A DNA stretch of 64,000 nucleotides, taken from assembly GCA_963845185.1 (NCBI GenBank), contig CAWJRG010000009.1, positions 704,001-768,000 of the forward strand, written 5' to 3'. Positions 5,873 through 17,528 of the stretch are shown one piece after another; the stretch's first letter is position 1; each line of letters starts with the position of its first letter. Position numbers and translations under genes: made by a program. Origin of the DNA: an uncultured bacterium (GTDB taxonomy: Bacteria > Oederibacteriota > PGYV01 > CAWJRG01). The notes beneath the pieces are model-generated. The model was not told the origin of the DNA, did not search any database, and saw nothing but the letters and a program-made list of their open reading frames with translations.

Positions 5873-6022
5873 AGTTTGTTGATAATATTTGTTAAAATAT
5901 TCGCAGATAGTTTTAAAAACTGATACCGCTTGTCGGGACCTGCGGCCCGGACTTGAGCGGGTATAAGATTCCGTAGGCGTTTGATAAAACCAAACGCAAC
6001 GGCATCTAACAAGGAGGCTGAC

Positions 6023-7615
6023 ATGATAAGAAAAGGCAGTAAACAAAGCTCTTTTCTTGACGCTGACTACATCTGCGAGCGGCTTGTGCCACAGGACAGT
6101 TTTTACCGTAAATTCAAGGAGCTTGTAATGCCGTTAATCAAAGACGAGAATTTTGATTCCATGTACTGCAGGGACAACGGCAGGCCCGCAATATCACCCG
6201 CATTGCTCGCGATAGCCTGTATTTTGCAGTTCTACTGCGGCTTATCCGACCGGGAAATGGAAGAAGCCTGCATGTACGACATCCGTATAAAGCATGTTCT
6301 CGGAGTAGGCATAGACGAGAGGCCTTTTGACCACTCATCGCTCGGCGACTTCCGGCAGCGTTTGCTTGAAAACGGAAAAGAAAAAGACATATTCGACAGG
6401 ATTGTCCAGCACCTTGTGGATAAAAAGCTGATAAAGAAAGACGAAATCCAGCGCATTGATACTACGCATGTAATAGCGGATATTGCCATCCCTTCCATGA
6501 TAGCAATGGTCAAAAAAGGCGTATATGAAATATTCAAGATAATCAGGAAGCAAAACAAAGATGTGTACAACACGATAAAAAAGCGGATACATATATCCGA
6601 ATACAAAAGAGAGACGATTAACCAGAATATGCCGGGCAGGTTCGACCTGGAGAAACGCAAGAAAAAGCTTGTGCGGACAATAGCTGAGGCAAAAATAGTA
6701 TTAAGGTACATTGAAAGACTGGAAATGAGCGCAGAACTAAAAAGCAAGGTGGATATATTAAAACAGATACTTTTGGAAAATACAAAGGAGGATAAAAGAG
6801 GCAGACTGGTGGAAATGGAGAATAAAGAAAAACCAACAAACAGGATGATATCGCCCATTGACCCGGAGGCAAGGTGCGGGGCAAAGTCAAAAACCATGAG
6901 GTTTTACGGTTACAAAGCGAATGTAACAGAAACAGTAAACAGCCGTTTTATCACGAACATAATGGCTATGGTCGGCAATGCCCCAGACGGTTCGAAAACT
7001 GTGGAAATGGTGATGGAGCAGGAGGAACATAAAATAAAGCCGGTTAAGTTGATAGGTGACGCGGCTTACAGCAACGGAGAGAAGCGGAAAGAACTGCTTA
7101 AATACGGGACACAGATTGTGGCACCAATGAGAAACAAGACAGGCAGAGCCCAGCATATATTCCCGAAGAACATGTTTAAGTACGATGAAGAAAAACAGAC
7201 TTTGACATGCCCGAACGGTGTTGTGACCAAAAGAACCACCCTTGACAGGCTGCACGACGCTATAACGTATCACTTTCCGGTTTATGAATGCGAGATATGC
7301 GACCTGCAGGCAAGGTGCACGAATAGCGGTGAAGAAAGAAGAACCGTAGGCATTACAAGCTGGCATGATGTGCTGTTAAAAACCGAAAAATATAACAGGA
7401 CAAAACAATACCAGAAAGACATGAAACTGCGCCAGCCCATAGAAGGCAGCATGTCTGAGATGAAAGAATATCACAAGATGATAAGGGCGCGATACCGCGG
7501 ATTACAGAAAGTCGGATTGCAGTTTTACTTCACGGCAGCCGCAGTAAATATAAAACGCTGGATTAAAGTAATACTTGAGAAAGTGAAGCCAAAGCGGGTT
7601 TTGTGTCCGGCCTGA
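6023..7615 (+). CDS. IS1182-family DDE transposase
   Basis: N-terminal GRPAISP...LSDRE...DHSSLGDFRQR (DUF772-like); IDTTH, GDAAY, RQPIEG DDE residues; CPNG...CxxC...C insertion; AAGGAGG RBS. Confidence 0.9.
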   Translation: MIRKGSKQSSFLDADYICERLVPQDSFYRKFKELVMPLIKDENFDSMYCRDNGRPAISPALLAIACILQFYCGLSDREMEEACMYDIRIKHVLGVGIDERPFDHSSLGDFRQRLLENGKEKDIFDRIVQHLVDKKLIKKDEIQRIDTTHVIADIAIPSMIAMVKKGVYEIFKIIRKQNKDVYNTIKKRIHISEYKRETINQNMPGRFDLEKRKKKLVRTIAEAKIVLRYIERLEMSAELKSKVDILKQILLENTKEDKRGRLVEMENKEKPTNRMISPIDPEARCGAKSKTMRFYGYKANVTETVNSRFITNIMAMVGNAPDGSKTVEMVMEQEEHKIKPVKLIGDAAYSNGEKRKELLKYGTQIVAPMRNKTGRAQHIFPKNMFKYDEEKQTLTCPNGVVTKRTTLDRLHDAITYHFPVYECEICDLQARCTNSGEERRTVGITSWHDVLLKTEKYNRTKQYQKDMKLRQPIEGSMSEMKEYHKMIRARYRGLQKVGLQFYFTAAAVNIKRWIKVILEKVKPKRVLCPA

Positions 7616-7854: not shown

Positions 7855-8898
7855 ATGAAAACAACATTTAACATGGTTATTGTAATGTGCTTATTAAACG
7901 CTATTTTTTCCGGCTGCAGCCATGAAACAGTTCGCATTACAGCGAAAACCGACGGGATTACACCCCTGAAAGTGCAGGCTAACCGCATCGTTGATTCAAT
8001 CGGAAATATAGTAATACTTAAGGGACTGAATATCTGCTACCCGTCTATTTTGATCCGGGAAAACCACTGGAACGAGGAATATTTCAAGGAAATGGCATCC
8101 TGGGGTGCAAAGCTTATACGCGTACCCATAGACCCGGGAAGCTACAGAAGATTTGGCAGCAAAAAGACTTTTCAAGTGCTTGACCAGGCTGTGCAATGGG
8201 CTAAAAGATACGGCATGTACGTCATGATAGACTGGCATTCCATAGGAAATATTGTATCCGGTATTTTTCAGGACCCATGGCAGGAGGAAATGAAGACAAC
8301 TGCTAAGGAAACAAAAAAATTCTGGTCAGATACGGCACAACGCTACAAAAAAGAACCAACGGTTGCTTTTTATGAAATATTCAACGAGCCTGCCTCGATG
8401 CACTGGAAAGGAGGCAGCATGTCATGGCAAAAATGGAGGGATGTGGCTGACGAAATTATAGATGCTATATATGCGCAAAACCCGGCAGCTATCCCGGTCG
8501 TAGGCGGGATGGAATGGGCCTATGATTTAAGGGACGCTGCAGAGGCGCCTCTGCGCAATAAGGGCATTGTTTTTGCCGTGCACCCGTATCCCGGCCATGC
8601 AGGCCAGCCGTGGGAGGATAACTGGGAAGAGGATTTCGGATATTTGGCAAAGGATTACCCGATGATGCTCACAGAATTTGGTTTTGACCCGGATGATAAA
8701 ATTATGCCTTCTGTTTACAAAGCAGATAATGATTACGGCCGCCGCATCCTGGCTTATGCGGATAAAAAAGGAATGTCATGGACAGCATTTGTTTTCTGCA
8801 ATTGCGAAAGCTGGCCGATGCCGCTTTTTAAGGACTGGGAAACTTATACGCCTACGGAATCAGGGGCATTTTTTAAAGAGCAGTTAAATAAACAATAA
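7855..8898 (+). CDS. Glycoside hydrolase family 5 (cellulase-like) lipoprotein
   Basis: IRVP, IDWH, FNEP (acid/base), HPY and TEFG (nucleophile) motifs; lipobox-like FSGC; GGAGG RBS before ATG 7855. Confidence 0.9.
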   Translation: MKTTFNMVIVMCLLNAIFSGCSHETVRITAKTDGITPLKVQANRIVDSIGNIVILKGLNICYPSILIRENHWNEEYFKEMASWGAKLIRVPIDPGSYRRFGSKKTFQVLDQAVQWAKRYGMYVMIDWHSIGNIVSGIFQDPWQEEMKTTAKETKKFWSDTAQRYKKEPTVAFYEIFNEPASMHWKGGSMSWQKWRDVADEIIDAIYAQNPAAIPVVGGMEWAYDLRDAAEAPLRNKGIVFAVHPYPGHAGQPWEDNWEEDFGYLAKDYPMMLTEFGFDPDDKIMPSVYKADNDYGRRILAYADKKGMSWTAFVFCNCESWPMPLFKDWETYTPTESGAFFKEQLNKQ

Positions 8899-9097
8899 TT
8901 TGTAGTTTGGCATTCAGCATCATGAATTAACGAATTAAATACATAATGCAAAATAAAAAATCAATGTAATTACATCGCAATAAAAACCAAAATTAAATTT
9001 AAATTCATTTATTAATTCCAAAATTTACTGCATAAAAACACATAAAACCGATCAAATTGTTAAACATAAAATTCTTTCATTTTTTTGAAAATAATGC

Positions 9098-9138
9098 TTG
9101 ACAAAATAGTAATTACTTTGTATACTCAAAGTAATTAC
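9098..9138 (+). promoter_or_regulatory. Sigma70 promoter with palindromic operator around the -10 box
   Basis: TTGACA (9098-9103), 17 bp, TATACT (9121-9126); perfect inverted repeat GTAATTACTTTG (9109-9120) / CAAAGTAATTAC (9127-9138). Confidence 0.85.
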
Positions 9139-9165
9139 AGAGCAAAAAAAGAAAGGAGGTAAAAC

Positions 9166-9579
9166 ATGAGGCTACAGGTTGTTGAGATTGGAAATTCGAA
9201 AGGCATCAGGATCCCGCAGGCAATCCTGAAGCAGGTGCATTTTGAAAATGAAGTCGACCTTGACGTGTCGGAAGGAAAGATAGTCCTGCGCAGGCTTGTG
9301 GACCCGGATTACATTTTTGGTTTTGAGTCAATCGCAAAGATGGACGACCAGAGCATTCAGAGAATGCTCAGAAAGGTCACCAGGACAGACCTTCTGATTG
9401 CGCTTATCGACGCGGACAAAACCGTAAAAGAAGCAGTATTCCGGAACCTGTCGGAATCGGCCAGGAATTACATCAAGGCAAAAGTGACCAAGCTGGAGAA
9501 AGGCAACGCGCGCGACCTGATGATTGAGAGGAGCCGTAACATGATCAGCGAAGCTTTCGCAGAAATGATCAGGGAGTAA
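9166..9579 (+). CDS. AbrB/MazE-type DNA-binding domain fused to FliG C-terminal-like domain
   Basis: N-terminus IGNSKGIRIP...IVLR (AbrB/MazE); C-terminus FGFESIAKMDDQSIQRMLRKV...LLIAL...VFRNLS (FliG-C pattern); GGAGG RBS. Confidence 0.8.
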   Translation: MRLQVVEIGNSKGIRIPQAILKQVHFENEVDLDVSEGKIVLRRLVDPDYIFGFESIAKMDDQSIQRMLRKVTRTDLLIALIDADKTVKEAVFRNLSESARNYIKAKVTKLEKGNARDLMIERSRNMISEAFAEMIRE

Positions 9580-9610
9580 TGCATAGTAATTCGAAGGAAA
9601 CAAAATTTCA

Positions 9611-9627
9611 GCCGCGTTTAACGCGGC
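9611..9627. repeat. GC-rich hairpin between the two AbrB-FliG genes
   Basis: GCCGCGTT-T-AACGCGGC, immediately before the AAGGAGG RBS of the second gene. Confidence 0.5.
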
Positions 9628-9642
9628 AAAAAGGAGGATGTC

Positions 9643-10095
9643 ATGGCAGTAGAAATTTCCGAAGCAGGAAATCTAGAAAGCTTGAGGTTTACGGGTGTAG
9701 TGCTGGAAAGCTTAAAAGCTGATAAAAAAGTTGAAGTTGTTGAAGTTGAAGCGGAAGAGAAAGTTGTTGTGCGCAGGAATATCGACAGGAACTTTAAAAC
9801 GGGTTTTGAATTACTCTCAAAAAAAGAAGACGCGGACATCAGGAAAATGCTGAACAAAGTGGACATTTTAGACGTTGTTACTGCGCTTGCAAATGCCGAC
9901 AAAACTGCAAAGCTTGCCGTTCTCAGGAATCTACCTCCAAACCTCAGGGAATATGTAGAGATCAATATACTGATTGTTGAAAAAAAGGGGATACACGGCA
10001 ATGAAACCGAGACATGCAGGACAAAGATAAGCGAAGCGTTTGTGGAAATGCTGTATGACGTGCATGCTTCAAGCCCGTCAAACGCGGTAATTTAA
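9643..10095 (+). CDS. Diverged paralog of the AbrB-FliG-C fusion
   Basis: AGNLESLRF...VVVRR (degenerate AbrB); GFELLSKKEDADIRKMLNKVD..DVVTAL..ADKT...RNL; shares ISEAFxEM with the upstream gene. Confidence 0.7.
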   Translation: MAVEISEAGNLESLRFTGVVLESLKADKKVEVVEVEAEEKVVVRRNIDRNFKTGFELLSKKEDADIRKMLNKVDILDVVTALANADKTAKLAVLRNLPPNLREYVEINILIVEKKGIHGNETETCRTKISEAFVEMLYDVHASSPSNAVI

Positions 10096-10236
10096 AGACA
10101 CAATAAATAATCCGCTTTTAACGGCTGGATATTTATTAATTTAAAGATATAAACAATAAATTCTGTTTAAGCAAAAAAGGTTATTATTATACAAACAGCT
10201 TTAAACAGGATTGCGTGATACTTATCTCTGCAAAGA

Positions 10237-10329
10237 AATTTTCAATTAAGAATTGCCAATTTTCAATTGCCGTAGTAAATTGATAATGAAATGAAAATTA
10301 TTAATTATTTTCAATTATCAATTGAGGTG
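10237..10329. repeat. Cluster of TCAATT heptad repeats with an inverted repeat, ending at the RBS
   Basis: TTGCCAATTTTCAATTG (10253-10269); AATTGATAATGAAA (10278-10291) / TTTCAATTATCAATT-GAGGTG (10309-10329). Confidence 0.55.
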
Positions 10330-10337
10330 TTGGTTTT

Positions 10338-10634
10338 ATGAAAAGGCAGACCATCAGTGAGATTAACAGGGAAATAAAGCTAAACCCGGATAACCCGGTG
10401 CCTTACAACAACCGCGGGAATATTAAAGCCATGATAGGAGACTACAAGGGAGCTATTAATGATTATAACAGGGCAATAGAGCTTAACCCGAAGTATGCTG
10501 AGGCTTATTACAGGCGCGGAACCGCTAAACATAATTCAGGAGATAAACAGGGCGCGCTTGAGGATTTAAACAAAGCCGGAGAACTGGGATATAAACAGGC
10601 CTATGATGAAATTAAGGAAATTCAAGGTGAGTGA
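10338..10634 (+). CDS. Small TPR protein
   Basis: YNNRG...GAIxDYxRAIELNP..AEAYY.RG TPR motifs; similar to the C-terminus of the 11293-12162 protein. Confidence 0.85.
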   Translation: MKRQTISEINREIKLNPDNPVPYNNRGNIKAMIGDYKGAINDYNRAIELNPKYAEAYYRRGTAKHNSGDKQGALEDLNKAGELGYKQAYDEIKEIQGE

Positions 10635-13334: not shown

Positions 13335-14588
13335 ATGAATCTTACGGAATTAAAGGTAAAGAAAACATCGGAACTACAGACAATCGCGAAGGAACTGAAA
13401 CTCGAAGGCATCAGCACTTTAAAAAAACAGGACTTAATCTTTAAAATCCTTGAAACCCAGACCAAACAAAATGGCCTTATTTATGGAGAGGGCGTGCTTG
13501 AGATACTGCCTGACGGCTTTGGTTTTTTGAGGTCGCCAAACTATAACTACCTGCCGGGGCCTGATGACATTTACATATCACCGTCCCAAATAAGGAAATT
13601 TGACCTTAGGACAGGCGACATGATTGCAGGACAGATAAGGCCGCCAAAAGAGGGTGAAAAGTACTTTGCGCTTCTAAAAGTGGAAACTATCAACGGTGAT
13701 GACCCTGAAAAGGCAAAAGACAAGGTGTTTTTTGACAATTTAACGCCGCTTTACCCGCATGAAAAAATCAATTTGGAAAACAAGGAAAAGGACATGTCCA
13801 TGAGGATTATGGACCTTTTAATACCTCTAGGCAAGGGCCAGAGGGGAATAATAGTCGCTCCGCCCAGGACGGGCAAGACCGTACTGCTCCAAAAAATAGC
13901 AAACAGCATATCTGAAAATCACCCTGAAATTTTCCTCATAGTGCTTCTCATAGACGAGCGTCCTGAGGAAGTTACCGACATGGAAAGGACAGTAAAAGGC
14001 GAGGTCATAAGCTCCACTTTTGACGAACCGCCGACAAGGCATTTGCAGGTATCGGACATGGTGCTCGAAAAGGCAAAAAGGCTAGTTGAAAGCGGTAAAG
14101 ACGTGGTAATACTCCTTGACAGCATAACAAGGCTTGCCAGGGCTTACAACACGGTGGCACCAAGCAGCGGCAAGGTGCTGACAGGCGGAATAGATTCAAA
14201 CGCTTTGCAGAAACCAAAAAGGTTTTTCGGTGCTGCCCGCGCAATAGAAGAGGGCGGTTCCCTGACAATAGTGGCAACAGCGCTTATTGAGACAGGAAGC
14301 AGGATGGACGATGTCATATTCGAGGAATTCAAGGGAACAGGCAATATGGAACTCGTGCTGTCAAGGGAACTGGCTGACAGGAGGCTTTTCCCGGCAATAG
14401 ACTGCTCCAAGTCAGGCACAAGGAAAGAAGAGCTGCTTTTGGCCAAGTTGGAACTACAGAAGGTATGGATACTCAGAAAGGCGCTTTTAAGCAAAATGAA
14501 ACCTGTGGAAATAATGGAATTCCTTATTGACAAAATGGGAAAGATGAAAAATAATAAGGCGTTTTTAGACGCTATGAATACGGATTAA
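13335..14588 (+). CDS. rho: Transcription termination factor Rho
   Basis: [49 protein letters not shown]. Confidence 0.99.
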
Positions 14589-16997: not shown

Positions 16998-17528
16998 ATG
17001 AAGCAGCCCCTCCTTAATGAAAAATTAATAAACTGCGCGGAATGCGGCGACCTTGAGGGAATAAAAGAACTCATGCATGCAAATATTGATATCAATGTAA
17101 AGGATTTTTCATCGCTTTACAACTATACGCCCTTGATGCTTGCTGCAAGATGCGGCCATACTCAGGTCGTGAAGGAACTTATTAAAGCAGGGGCAGACAT
17201 TAACTACAGGAACAGTCTTGGTTATACCGCACTCATGGAAAGCGCGTGGTTCGGCAAAATTGAAACTGTAAAGGCACTGATTGAGGCGAACGTAAATATT
17301 GACTTAAGAAACAACGAGGGCAATACCGCGCTCATGGAAGCTGCCGCGATGGGCCATGTCGAAATAGTAAAGGTACTGATAAACGCCGGGGCAGGATTTA
17401 ATATTAAAAACAAAAATGGAAATTCTTGTTTTGACATGTCCAAAAAAAAGGAAATAAAGGAAATTTTTAGTGAGTATGAGAAAAAACCCGGGATAATAAA
17501 AAGAATTATTAAAAAGTTTAAAAAATGA
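16998..17528 (+). CDS. Ankyrin-repeat protein
   Basis: TPLMLAA..GH..VVKELIKAGADIN and TALMEAA..GH canonical 33-aa repeats. Confidence 0.92.
   Translation: MKQPLLNEKLINCAECGDLEGIKELMHANIDINVKDFSSLYNYTPLMLAARCGHTQVVKELIKAGADINYRNSLGYTALMESAWFGKIETVKALIEANVNIDLRNNEGNTALMEAAAMGHVEIVKVLINAGAGFNIKNKNGNSCFDMSKKKEIKEIFSEYEKKPGIIKRIIKKFKK

Follow-up and report, generated by a model that had tools for sequence, protein, structure and literature searches.

What a piece of the flagellar rotor does when it is carried by a small DNA-binding protein is the question raised by two adjacent genes, g1 and g2, in a stretch of 64,000 nucleotides of an uncultured bacterium (contig CAWJRG010000009.1 of the assembly GCA_963845185.1, positions 704,001 to 768,000), called here the window. 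The C-terminal subdomain of the rotor protein FliG takes the torque from the stator, and outside the motor its fold is, to our knowledge, known mainly from the magnesium channel MgtE. An earlier description made from the letters of the window, the sequence-only reading, had taken both open reading frames (ORFs) for tandem fusions of an AbrB/MazE-type domain with the C-terminal domain of FliG. The two ORFs (Table 1) are such fusions, with a FliG_C match over the cut-off and a FliG-like fold in each, and g1 most likely encodes a repressor of its own promoter.

Domain composition and fold

The C-terminal part of g1 matches the Pfam family FliG_C (PF01706, cut-off 23.3 bits) with E 1.2e-14 and 54.9 bits, residues 50-135 falling on the positions 18-101 of the 108 in the profile, and that of g2 with E 3.7e-5 and 24.4 bits, marginally over the cut-off; FliG_N and FliG_M were not matched in the Pfam scan of g1 and g2. 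A profile made of 27 family members matches the solved FliG chains, the best with E 3.2e-9, and, independently, the AbrB/MazE/SpoVT chain 7d2n_E at 4.3e-5 and the MazE chains 1mvf (0.0023) and 1ub4 (0.0026), the AbrB/MazE matches ranging from 4.3e-5 to 0.005. The N-domain of g1 is 52% identical to the AbrB/MazE genes of Leptospira plasmids.

The AlphaFold model of g1, built with a 27-row alignment and having a mean predicted local distance difference test (pLDDT) of 76, contains, as a monomer, the strands 3-8, 30-35 and 38-43 and the helix 18-21 in its N-part, and six helices within the residues 53-136, at pLDDT of 84-91, in its C-part. In a Foldseek search with this model the ranks 1-12 and 14-16 were all taken by FliG chains, with the probability of 1.00 and 23-35% identity. 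By VIA-align, residues 51-113 of the model were superposed on residues 236-297 of Thermotoga maritima FliG (1lkv) with Z of 9.6, a root-mean-square deviation of 1.2 Å over 62 residues and 40% identity, followed by FliG of A. aeolicus (Z 9.1), FliG of Salmonella (Z 8.8) and the N-domain of MgtE (8gps, Z 7.2). The model of g2 has the same six-helix pattern, at pLDDT near 90, and its residues 1-44 are without secondary structure, at pLDDT below 50. Accordingly, the C-terminal region both scores and folds as FliG_C, and the N-terminus is, as had been read, intact in g1 and degenerate in g2: the loop motif given in Table 1 is invariant in 27/27 aligned members, and g2 keeps, by reading of the alignment, 4/16 of the family-invariant columns in the N-domain and 9/14 in the C-domain.

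The match to FliG in g1 begins at the MFXF-type hinge (IFGF) and spans the helices after it. Since the ARM_C motif of FliG, as we take it, precedes this hinge, g1 carries the subdomain of the torque helix, without the ARM. The extent of the match in the sequence-only reading, from the hinge through the C-terminal helices, thus stands, its inclusion of the ARM does not, and the ARM-mediated stacking of FliG on FliG that it invoked is not applicable, the ARM_C part being absent; the strings IFGF, LSESARNYIKAK and LPPNLREYVEIN that it quoted are all present in the sequence. The N(M/L)S motif and the hinge phenylalanine of FliG are kept in the C-domain of the family, and the net charge of the C-domains is near neutral and uninformative. 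The fold is homologous to FliG (1lkv/1qc7; 8umd of Salmonella) from the hinge onward, whereas FliG_N, FliG_M (EHPQR) and ARM_C are missing and a DNA-binding domain is fused in front. Neither gene is a FliG, as TIGR00207, the fliG equivalog of NCBIfam, matches g1 only partially (positions 236-298) and far below its cut-off (47.6 against 226.7 bits). MgtE_N (PF03448) has no match in g1 and an E of 0.04 with 14.9 bits, against the cut-off of 25.9, in g2, and no transporter domains were found in either.

Promoter and operator

The promoter of g1, with 11/12 matches to the consensus, is the best site within positions 8850-10400, and the layout of TTGACA followed by TATACT or TATGCT was seen upstream of most relatives. 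Its -10 hexamer stands at the centre of a palindromic operator, whose outer boxes GTAATTAC, themselves 8-bp palindromes, occupy positions 9109-9116 and 9131-9138, being 14 nt apart and 22 bp from centre to centre. The upstream regions compared were 34, that of the window and those of the 33 loci (L004-L036) with full-length relatives, taken from one genome per species, and the two boxes at the 14-nt spacing were scored over 16 positions. The double box has 0-1 mismatches in total in 15 of these regions, 2 in eight more and 3-4 in four; thus, with up to two mismatches it is present in 23/34, spanning Spirochaetota, genomes of the FCPU426/Goldbacteria type and metagenome-assembled genomes (MAGs) labelled as Bacillota, and the chance expectation is, by our own estimate, about 1e-4 per region. 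The loci L015, L019, L022 and L028 carry mirror-image changes in both boxes, so that the inverted repeat is preserved, as expected for the site of a symmetric oligomer.

The 3.5-Mb genome of the window contains 69 single boxes and one perfect double box, which is that at the g1 promoter; the search for a second operator in the same genome gave just 2-mismatch matches at the level of chance and one 1-mismatch match at a 16-nt spacing. In five other carrier genomes, where the pattern read backwards served as a control and gave 0-3 matches per strand, the best double-box match (0-1 mismatch) is always directly upstream of the g1 homolog. As the palindrome covers the -10 hexamer, is conserved across phyla and is unique in the genome, repression of this promoter by g1 itself is very probable, and the autoregulation proposed in the sequence-only reading is strongly suggested. 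A palindromic operator overlapping the own promoter is shared with the MazE/AbrB/SpoVT regulators, and the autoregulation that belongs to the MazE-type antitoxins is in this way matched at the sequence level.

A TAATTAC-rich 30-mer is common to two relatives of the window's genome (G005, L109 1500-1590, G005:C3; G001, C22:5146-5175), where the genes flanking it resemble, by eye, those for DAHP synthase and prephenate dehydrogenase. It was considered as a second operator and rejected, as its appearance is that of AT-rich sequence of low complexity and the genome of the window lacks it.

Family and distribution

In a protein collection clustered at 90% identity, 252 relatives of g1 at E ≤ 1e-3 were present among 274 candidates. 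All of the 120 relatives listed have PF01706, and 108 of them are exactly 137 residues long, at 58-100% identity; in their sources they are named 'FliG' or 'flagellar motor switch protein FliG', 'MazE antitoxin', or not at all. The labels 'flagellar motor switch protein FliG' and 'antitoxin MazE' both fail to fit, and the family as described here corrects these automatic annotations. A search by HMMER over 1.84 billion representatives at 50% identity gave 1645 proteins at E ≤ 1e-3 and 40 at ≤ 1e-10, of which about 14 span nearly the whole profile; the two-domain family is, therefore, small. Twelve representatives were read: four have the intact N-motif, one an unrelated N-terminus, and seven, each standing for a 50%-identity cluster, are g2-like, with a degenerate or missing N-terminus before a g1-type C-domain.

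Besides the 33 loci with full-length relatives, a further 47 match the N-domain alone. The records of the 33 are labelled mostly as Spirochaetota, the rest being candidate division FCPU426, Goldbacteria, one Ignavibacteriales MAG and one Bacillota MAG; among the carriers there is also a named isolate, Sporosalibacterium faouarense, with a homolog of 42% identity (L033). Within the phylum of the window (99 genomes) full-length copies are confined to the order of the window, with 8/24 genomes including that of the window, and an even sample of Spirochaetia, the class that holds the genome G013, gave 7 carriers in 301 genomes. Thus, the family is patchy and rare. No fused or longer form of g1 scored among 387 candidates, which is weak evidence.

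A probable small autorepressor with a proposed protein-protein module

The explanation preferred here, at somewhat better than even probability, is that g1 is a small chromosomal autorepressor whose C-domain serves as a protein-protein module and whose paralog g2 acts as a modulator. The N-terminal AbrB/MazE-type domain would dimerise, as such domains do, and one g1 dimer would sit on each GTAATTAC box, with the -10 hexamer occluded and the transcription of g1 and g2 turned off. The C-domain, a diverged torque-helix subdomain of FliG, most likely acts as the protein-protein module. It could bridge the dimers on the two boxes, giving a tetramer that spans the 22 bp, comparably with the C-terminal domains of AbrB and SpoVT, and it could also bind a paralogous FliG_C-like partner. 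The tandem duplicate g2, having kept the C-domain, would enter mixed oligomers and weaken or tune the repression. As a second target site was not found, the output of the module is probably exerted at the level of proteins, via the FliG_C-like domains.

The genes g1 and g2 are 34% identical across 137 residues (E 3e-21), and by its alignment g2 is a fast-evolving paralog that lacks the residues for DNA contact. It has two close relatives only, 74% and 49% identical to it. A metagenome scan with the three g2 sequences found one locus, the contig L108, where g2 follows directly after g1 behind the same promoter and operator; its g1 is 77% identical to that of the window and its g2 49%, from which it follows that g2 evolves much faster than g1. 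The three g2 proteins, 51-77% identical, have 69 invariant columns and keep the C-domain, and this conservation, together with the several g2-like clusters at 50% identity, argues for a retained function of g2. In the tree of C-domains, the g2-like proteins of the window type (g2, P0122, P0123 and L008d1) are nested inside the g1 clade, as is L005d1, so that their origin is by tandem duplication. The small FliG_C-only proteins (77-96 residues) form a clade of their own there, with the support of 99/97, and L019d1, initially labelled as g2-like, groups with them.

Several points weigh against this explanation. MazE_antitoxin (PF04014) matches g1 below its threshold (E 0.0011, 19.3 bits against 24.7) and does not match g2, so that, of the two families named for a Pfam check in the sequence-only reading, FliG_C is found in both genes and MazE_antitoxin passes in neither; a precomputed PF04014 match is present in 7 of the 120 listed members. 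The AbrB part of the g1 model is of low confidence (pLDDT 47-65), and the binding of DNA by g1 is something that we infer. At up to two mismatches per box, the double box was not found in 7/34 upstream regions, one of which is just 36 nt long and too short to judge, and several of which are those of high-GC treponemes, with apparently diverged boxes of the GTG..CAC type by eye. A repressor with its own promoter as the sole target has no obvious output. About 25 of the 33 loci lack a FliG_C-like gene immediately downstream, and the binding of a paralogous partner cannot, therefore, be the general role of the C-domain. Finally, the polar residues E121, S123, R124 and N125 are among the 14 C-domain positions invariant in the 27 aligned members, which hints at a specific ligand or partner and not at mere self-association.

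Relation to the flagellum

The C-domain is a true homolog of the stator-facing subdomain, 30-40% identical to the solved FliG proteins, and this is the first ground for another explanation, considered unlikely, by which g1 is a regulator coupled to the motor: its C-domain would bind a flagellar part, such as FliM, free stator units of MotA/MotB or a brake that binds FliG, the sequestration of g1 at the motor would derepress the operon, and the FliG_C-only products, g2 and the small paralogs elsewhere, would be soluble decoys or brakes. The family is, moreover, centred on Spirochaetota, in which small FliG_C-only proteins are common. The charges of E. coli FliG in contact with MotA, presumably numbered as K264, R281, D288, D289 and R297, can be followed through the equivalent positions of 27 members. 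The R297 equivalent is R or K in 27/27 and that of R281 is R in 16/27, which agrees with a motor partner; on the other side, the latter is S in g1 of the window, the K264 equivalent is I, V or M in 27/27, and the acidic residues are gone in all members, the D288 equivalent being never acidic in 27/27 and that of D289 never acidic and K or R in 21/27. With these losses at the stator-contact positions, the stator-facing ridge is not preserved. In the tree of C-domains the true FliG sequences, drawn from 12 genomes, group together, with the support of 100/98 and a branch of 1.3 changes per column, and the FliG-like domain is, by this tree, an old clade well apart from them.

The genome of the window has a true fliG (340 residues, C9:267804), fliM and flhA, all of them far from the window. 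Of the 33 other host genomes 31 have FliG_M, and FlhA and FliM are present in one of the remaining two, which likewise favours the motor; however, the survey of host flagellation is answered here by lineages that are almost all flagellated. Thus, in the order of the window FliG_M is present in 22/24 genomes and g1 in 8, with 14/22 FliG-bearing genomes lacking g1, so the co-occurrence of g1 and FliG carries little weight, and the rarity of g1 in the sampled Spirochaetia (7/301) is a further point against the motor. In the genome of the locus L011 (G008, Ignavibacteriales label), g1 occurs together with a small FliG_C-only gene and a gene for an ankyrin protein, and FliG_M, FlhA and FliM were not found; this MAG is either a carrier without flagella or incomplete, or else a spirochaete contig was mis-binned into it.

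The neighbourhoods of g1 are similarly poor in motility genes. Only motA/motB in L036, about 2.5-4 kb from g1 and on the opposite strand, and a chemoreceptor in L030 were met in the 33 loci, and in the window neither a flagellar nor a toxin gene is within about 12 kb on either side of g1-g2 and no flagellar gene is in 1-23 kb, as the sequence-only reading had seen for the adjacent genes. For the coupling to C-ring assembly or binding to the motor that it had suggested, homology speaks, and the mostly lost charges, the single flagellar locus in 33 and the 14/22 FliG genomes without the family speak against it; beyond the homology that suggestion is not supported. Slightly less probable still is a further version, in which the family would act as a motor sensor of the titration-feedback type: the torque-domain mimic on g1 would bind a motor component, such as unincorporated stators or a brake that binds FliG, its sequestration would derepress the promoter, and the synthesis of FliG_C-only decoys (g2 and the small spirochaetal paralogs, the latter with their ankyrin partners) would be matched to the motor state. 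If true, a piece of the rotor itself would have given rise to motility regulators of a new class.

Gene neighbourhoods and the toxin-antitoxin alternative

The neighbour scan covered 254 ORFs (22 + 121 + 111) of the 33 loci, namely those of at least 90 residues within about 4.5 kb and those of at least 60 residues immediately downstream. A FliG_C-like second gene follows g1 in 7/33 loci by Pfam and in one more by eye; FliG_C-only genes stand directly downstream of the g1 homologs in 7-8/33, often followed by a gene with three ankyrin repeats. Ankyrin-repeat proteins are downstream in 9/33 loci by Pfam, usually of about 122 residues and three repeats, and a dienelactone hydrolase follows g1 in at least two treponemal loci. 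In three loci of the spirochaete type, L011, L012 and L026, a conserved membrane protein of about 127-145 residues (start MPKIL..GE), which belongs to no Pfam family, is encoded downstream of g1, where the small FliG_C-only gene and the ankyrin gene are present as well.

As improbable as the coupling to the motor is the explanation that the locus is an addiction cassette or similar to a toxin-antitoxin pair, in which g1 would be an atypical antitoxin of the MazE class, with a folded tail that neutralises a partner of non-standard kind, be it g2, a small protein of the FliG_C-only or ankyrin type or the product of an unlinked gene, and in many genomes an orphan antitoxin. It would agree with the small size of g1, with the likeness of its N-domain to plasmid-borne genes of Leptospira, with the palindromic operator on the own -10 and no other genomic target, with the rare and patchy spread at high conservation across phyla, with the variable flanks, including a transposase of the insertion sequence (IS) type 1.5 kb upstream in the window, and with the faster evolution of the second gene. 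However, no known toxin family is present among the 254 neighbouring ORFs, of which those below 90 residues were scanned only if immediately downstream. The adjacent cognate toxin (MazF/PemK, Doc or VapC) by which a type II antitoxin of the MazE type is recognised was, thus, not found, and the case that the sequence-only reading had named as refuting its own view, homologs routinely followed by a standard toxin, was not encountered in the 33 relatives. Unlike the MazE-type antitoxins, g1 was found without an adjacent toxin in the 33 relatives and in the window, and its C-part is a folded six-helix FliG_C-like domain and not a disordered toxin-binding tail.

Further evidence against such a cassette is that a conserved second gene is missing in about 25/33 loci, that PADLOC has no match for g1, g2 or a small paralog, and that PHROGs give for g1 just a weak AbrB-type match, to a PHROG of unknown function. 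No full-length relative was found on plasmids, phage records or viral contigs, the plasmid matches being FliG or AbrB/MazE genes with the N-domain alone. The gene g2 is a paralog of g1, unlike the build of toxin-antitoxin pairs. In both the window (13335-14588) and L108 (5043-6296), rho is a few kb downstream of g1-g2, with different genes between, and this synteny suggests that the pair has been passed on vertically within this lineage.

In the least probable explanation g1 would be a transcription factor of a general, AbrB-like kind that controls a broader and degenerate set of genes, the C-domain being a mere tetramerisation scaffold and g2 a functionless decaying duplicate. This would agree with the loose sites and C-terminal multimerisation of the AbrB-family regulators, with the decayed N-domain of g2 and with the few close g2 relatives (3 proteins), but it is opposed by the sharp, conserved operator having no second good site in 6 genomes, by the well-conserved C-domain of g2 and by the g2-like proteins of several clusters.

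Comparison with known systems

With the MazE/AbrB/SpoVT domains (PF04014; 7d2n, 1mvf, 1ub4) g1 shares an N-domain of about 45 residues, the predicted pattern of strands and helix, the loop motif and the small size. The Bacillus subtilis regulators AbrB and SpoVT join a swapped-hairpin N-domain to a C-terminal multimerisation or GAF domain; g1 is similar in having a putative DNA-binding hairpin and a separate domain, and its half-sites, two helical turns apart, would fit a dimer of dimers. It differs from them in the unrelated fold of the C-domain, in the sharp palindrome against the loose AbrB sites, and in that no wider regulon was found. The N-domain of MgtE (PF03448) is a precedent for the reuse of the FliG-type helical fold outside the motor, whereas g1 is 13% identical to MgtE against 30-40% to FliG and lacks both CBS and transporter domains. 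In Spirochaetota, the small FliG_C-only proteins, which are unnamed clusters of 82-88 residues and whose clusters in the ESM Atlas count 142 and 52 members, have in common with the g1 family a diverged FliG_C-type domain; unlike them, g2 is a full-length degenerate paralog, the FliG_C-only proteins having no AbrB-like region at all.

Literature searches found no paper on an AbrB/MazE-FliG_C fusion, as the sequence-only reading had presumed in calling the architecture undescribed, and in the portion of PMC8789113 consulted PF01706 is used merely for gathering FliG sequences. The architecture is already contained in public protein collections and automatic clusters; it is best described as a probable AbrB-family autoregulator with an exapted rotor domain. 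Long ago, in this case, a domain of the rotor became part of a small DNA-binding protein, and it has since been strongly constrained across several phyla, along with an operator that is precisely conserved. The system is compact, with a single protein, a single 30-bp site and a single paralog, and lends itself to asking which partners the free torque domain of FliG has. If the partner is a component of the motor, this would be a new link between motility and gene expression in spirochaetes and neighbouring groups; if it is not, a part of a machine has been reused as a module for oligomerisation or partner binding in a repressor of the AbrB type.

Layout of the locus and minor observations

Table 1. 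Features of the g1-g2 locus, in positions of the window
Feature	Position	Strand	Description
Sigma-70-type promoter	9098..9126	+	TTGACA (9098-9103), 17-nt spacer, TATACT (9121-9126)
Operator palindrome	9109..9138	.	Perfect 30 bp, GTAATTACTTTG / TATACT / CAAAGTAATTAC, with the -10 hexamer in the exact centre
g1 ribosome-binding site	9154..9159	+	AGGAGG, read by eye
g1 ORF	9166..9579	+	137 residues, AbrB/MazE-like domain joined to FliG C-terminal-like domain
g1 N-domain	9166..9300	+	Residues 1-45, swapped-hairpin AbrB/MazE type, invariant motif IGNS.G.RIP.A.L.Q
g1 C-domain	9313..9570	+	Residues 50-135, FliG C-terminal-like, from the hinge IFGF to the final helix
Stem-loop	9611..9627	+	GC-rich, 7 bp, in the g1-g2 intergenic RNA, directly before the g2 ribosome-binding site
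g2 ORF	9643..10095	+	150 residues, tandem paralog of g1
g2 N-terminal region	9643..9774	+	Residues 1-44, degenerate remnant of an AbrB-like domain
g2 C-domain	9802..10068	+	Residues 54-142, FliG_C-like, helical; PF01706 match

Strong Shine-Dalgarno sequences of the AGGAGG type precede both g1 and g2. The intergenic stem-loop may set the ratio of g1 to g2 expression. It has a counterpart of 8 bp at the equivalent intergenic position of L108 (2962-2981, z -4.2), with other letters in loop and stem than in the window, and merely a weak 4-bp stem is present at that position in L005.

The IS-type DDE transposase gene (DDE_Tnp_1_6, DUF772) of the window is located at 5981-7615, 1.5 kb upstream of g1, with a cellulase gene of the glycoside hydrolase family GH5 between the two; downstream of g2 there are genes for tetratricopeptide-repeat proteins and a membrane protein. 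Farther on, at 16998-17528, an ankyrin-repeat gene of 176 residues stands between a prfA-like (PCRF/RF-1) and a prmC-like gene; it was considered as kin of the ankyrin genes linked to g1 and set aside, the likeness being limited to the generic level of the repeats.

Two further observations concern single loci. In L036 (5989-7248) the ORF of the homolog is in frame for the residues 1-73 only and continues to 419 residues, whereas tblastn spans the residues 1-136, so a frameshift or an assembly error is probable. In L035 (665-1027, an Exilispira-labelled MAG) the gene directly after a divergent homolog of 40% identity overlaps it by 4 nt and encodes a DUF4180 protein (E 4e-40). Apart from the g1 family, FliG_C seems to be reused more freely as a module than its name would imply: eight metagenomic proteins (P0149, P0154, P0157, P0161, P0179, P0181, P0195 and P0216) carry 2-4 FliG_C domains in tandem, and odd fusions include a protein of 948 residues with a MotA_ExbB-like stretch and one of 996 residues that combines FliM, four DUF4116 repeats, FliG_M and FliG_C.

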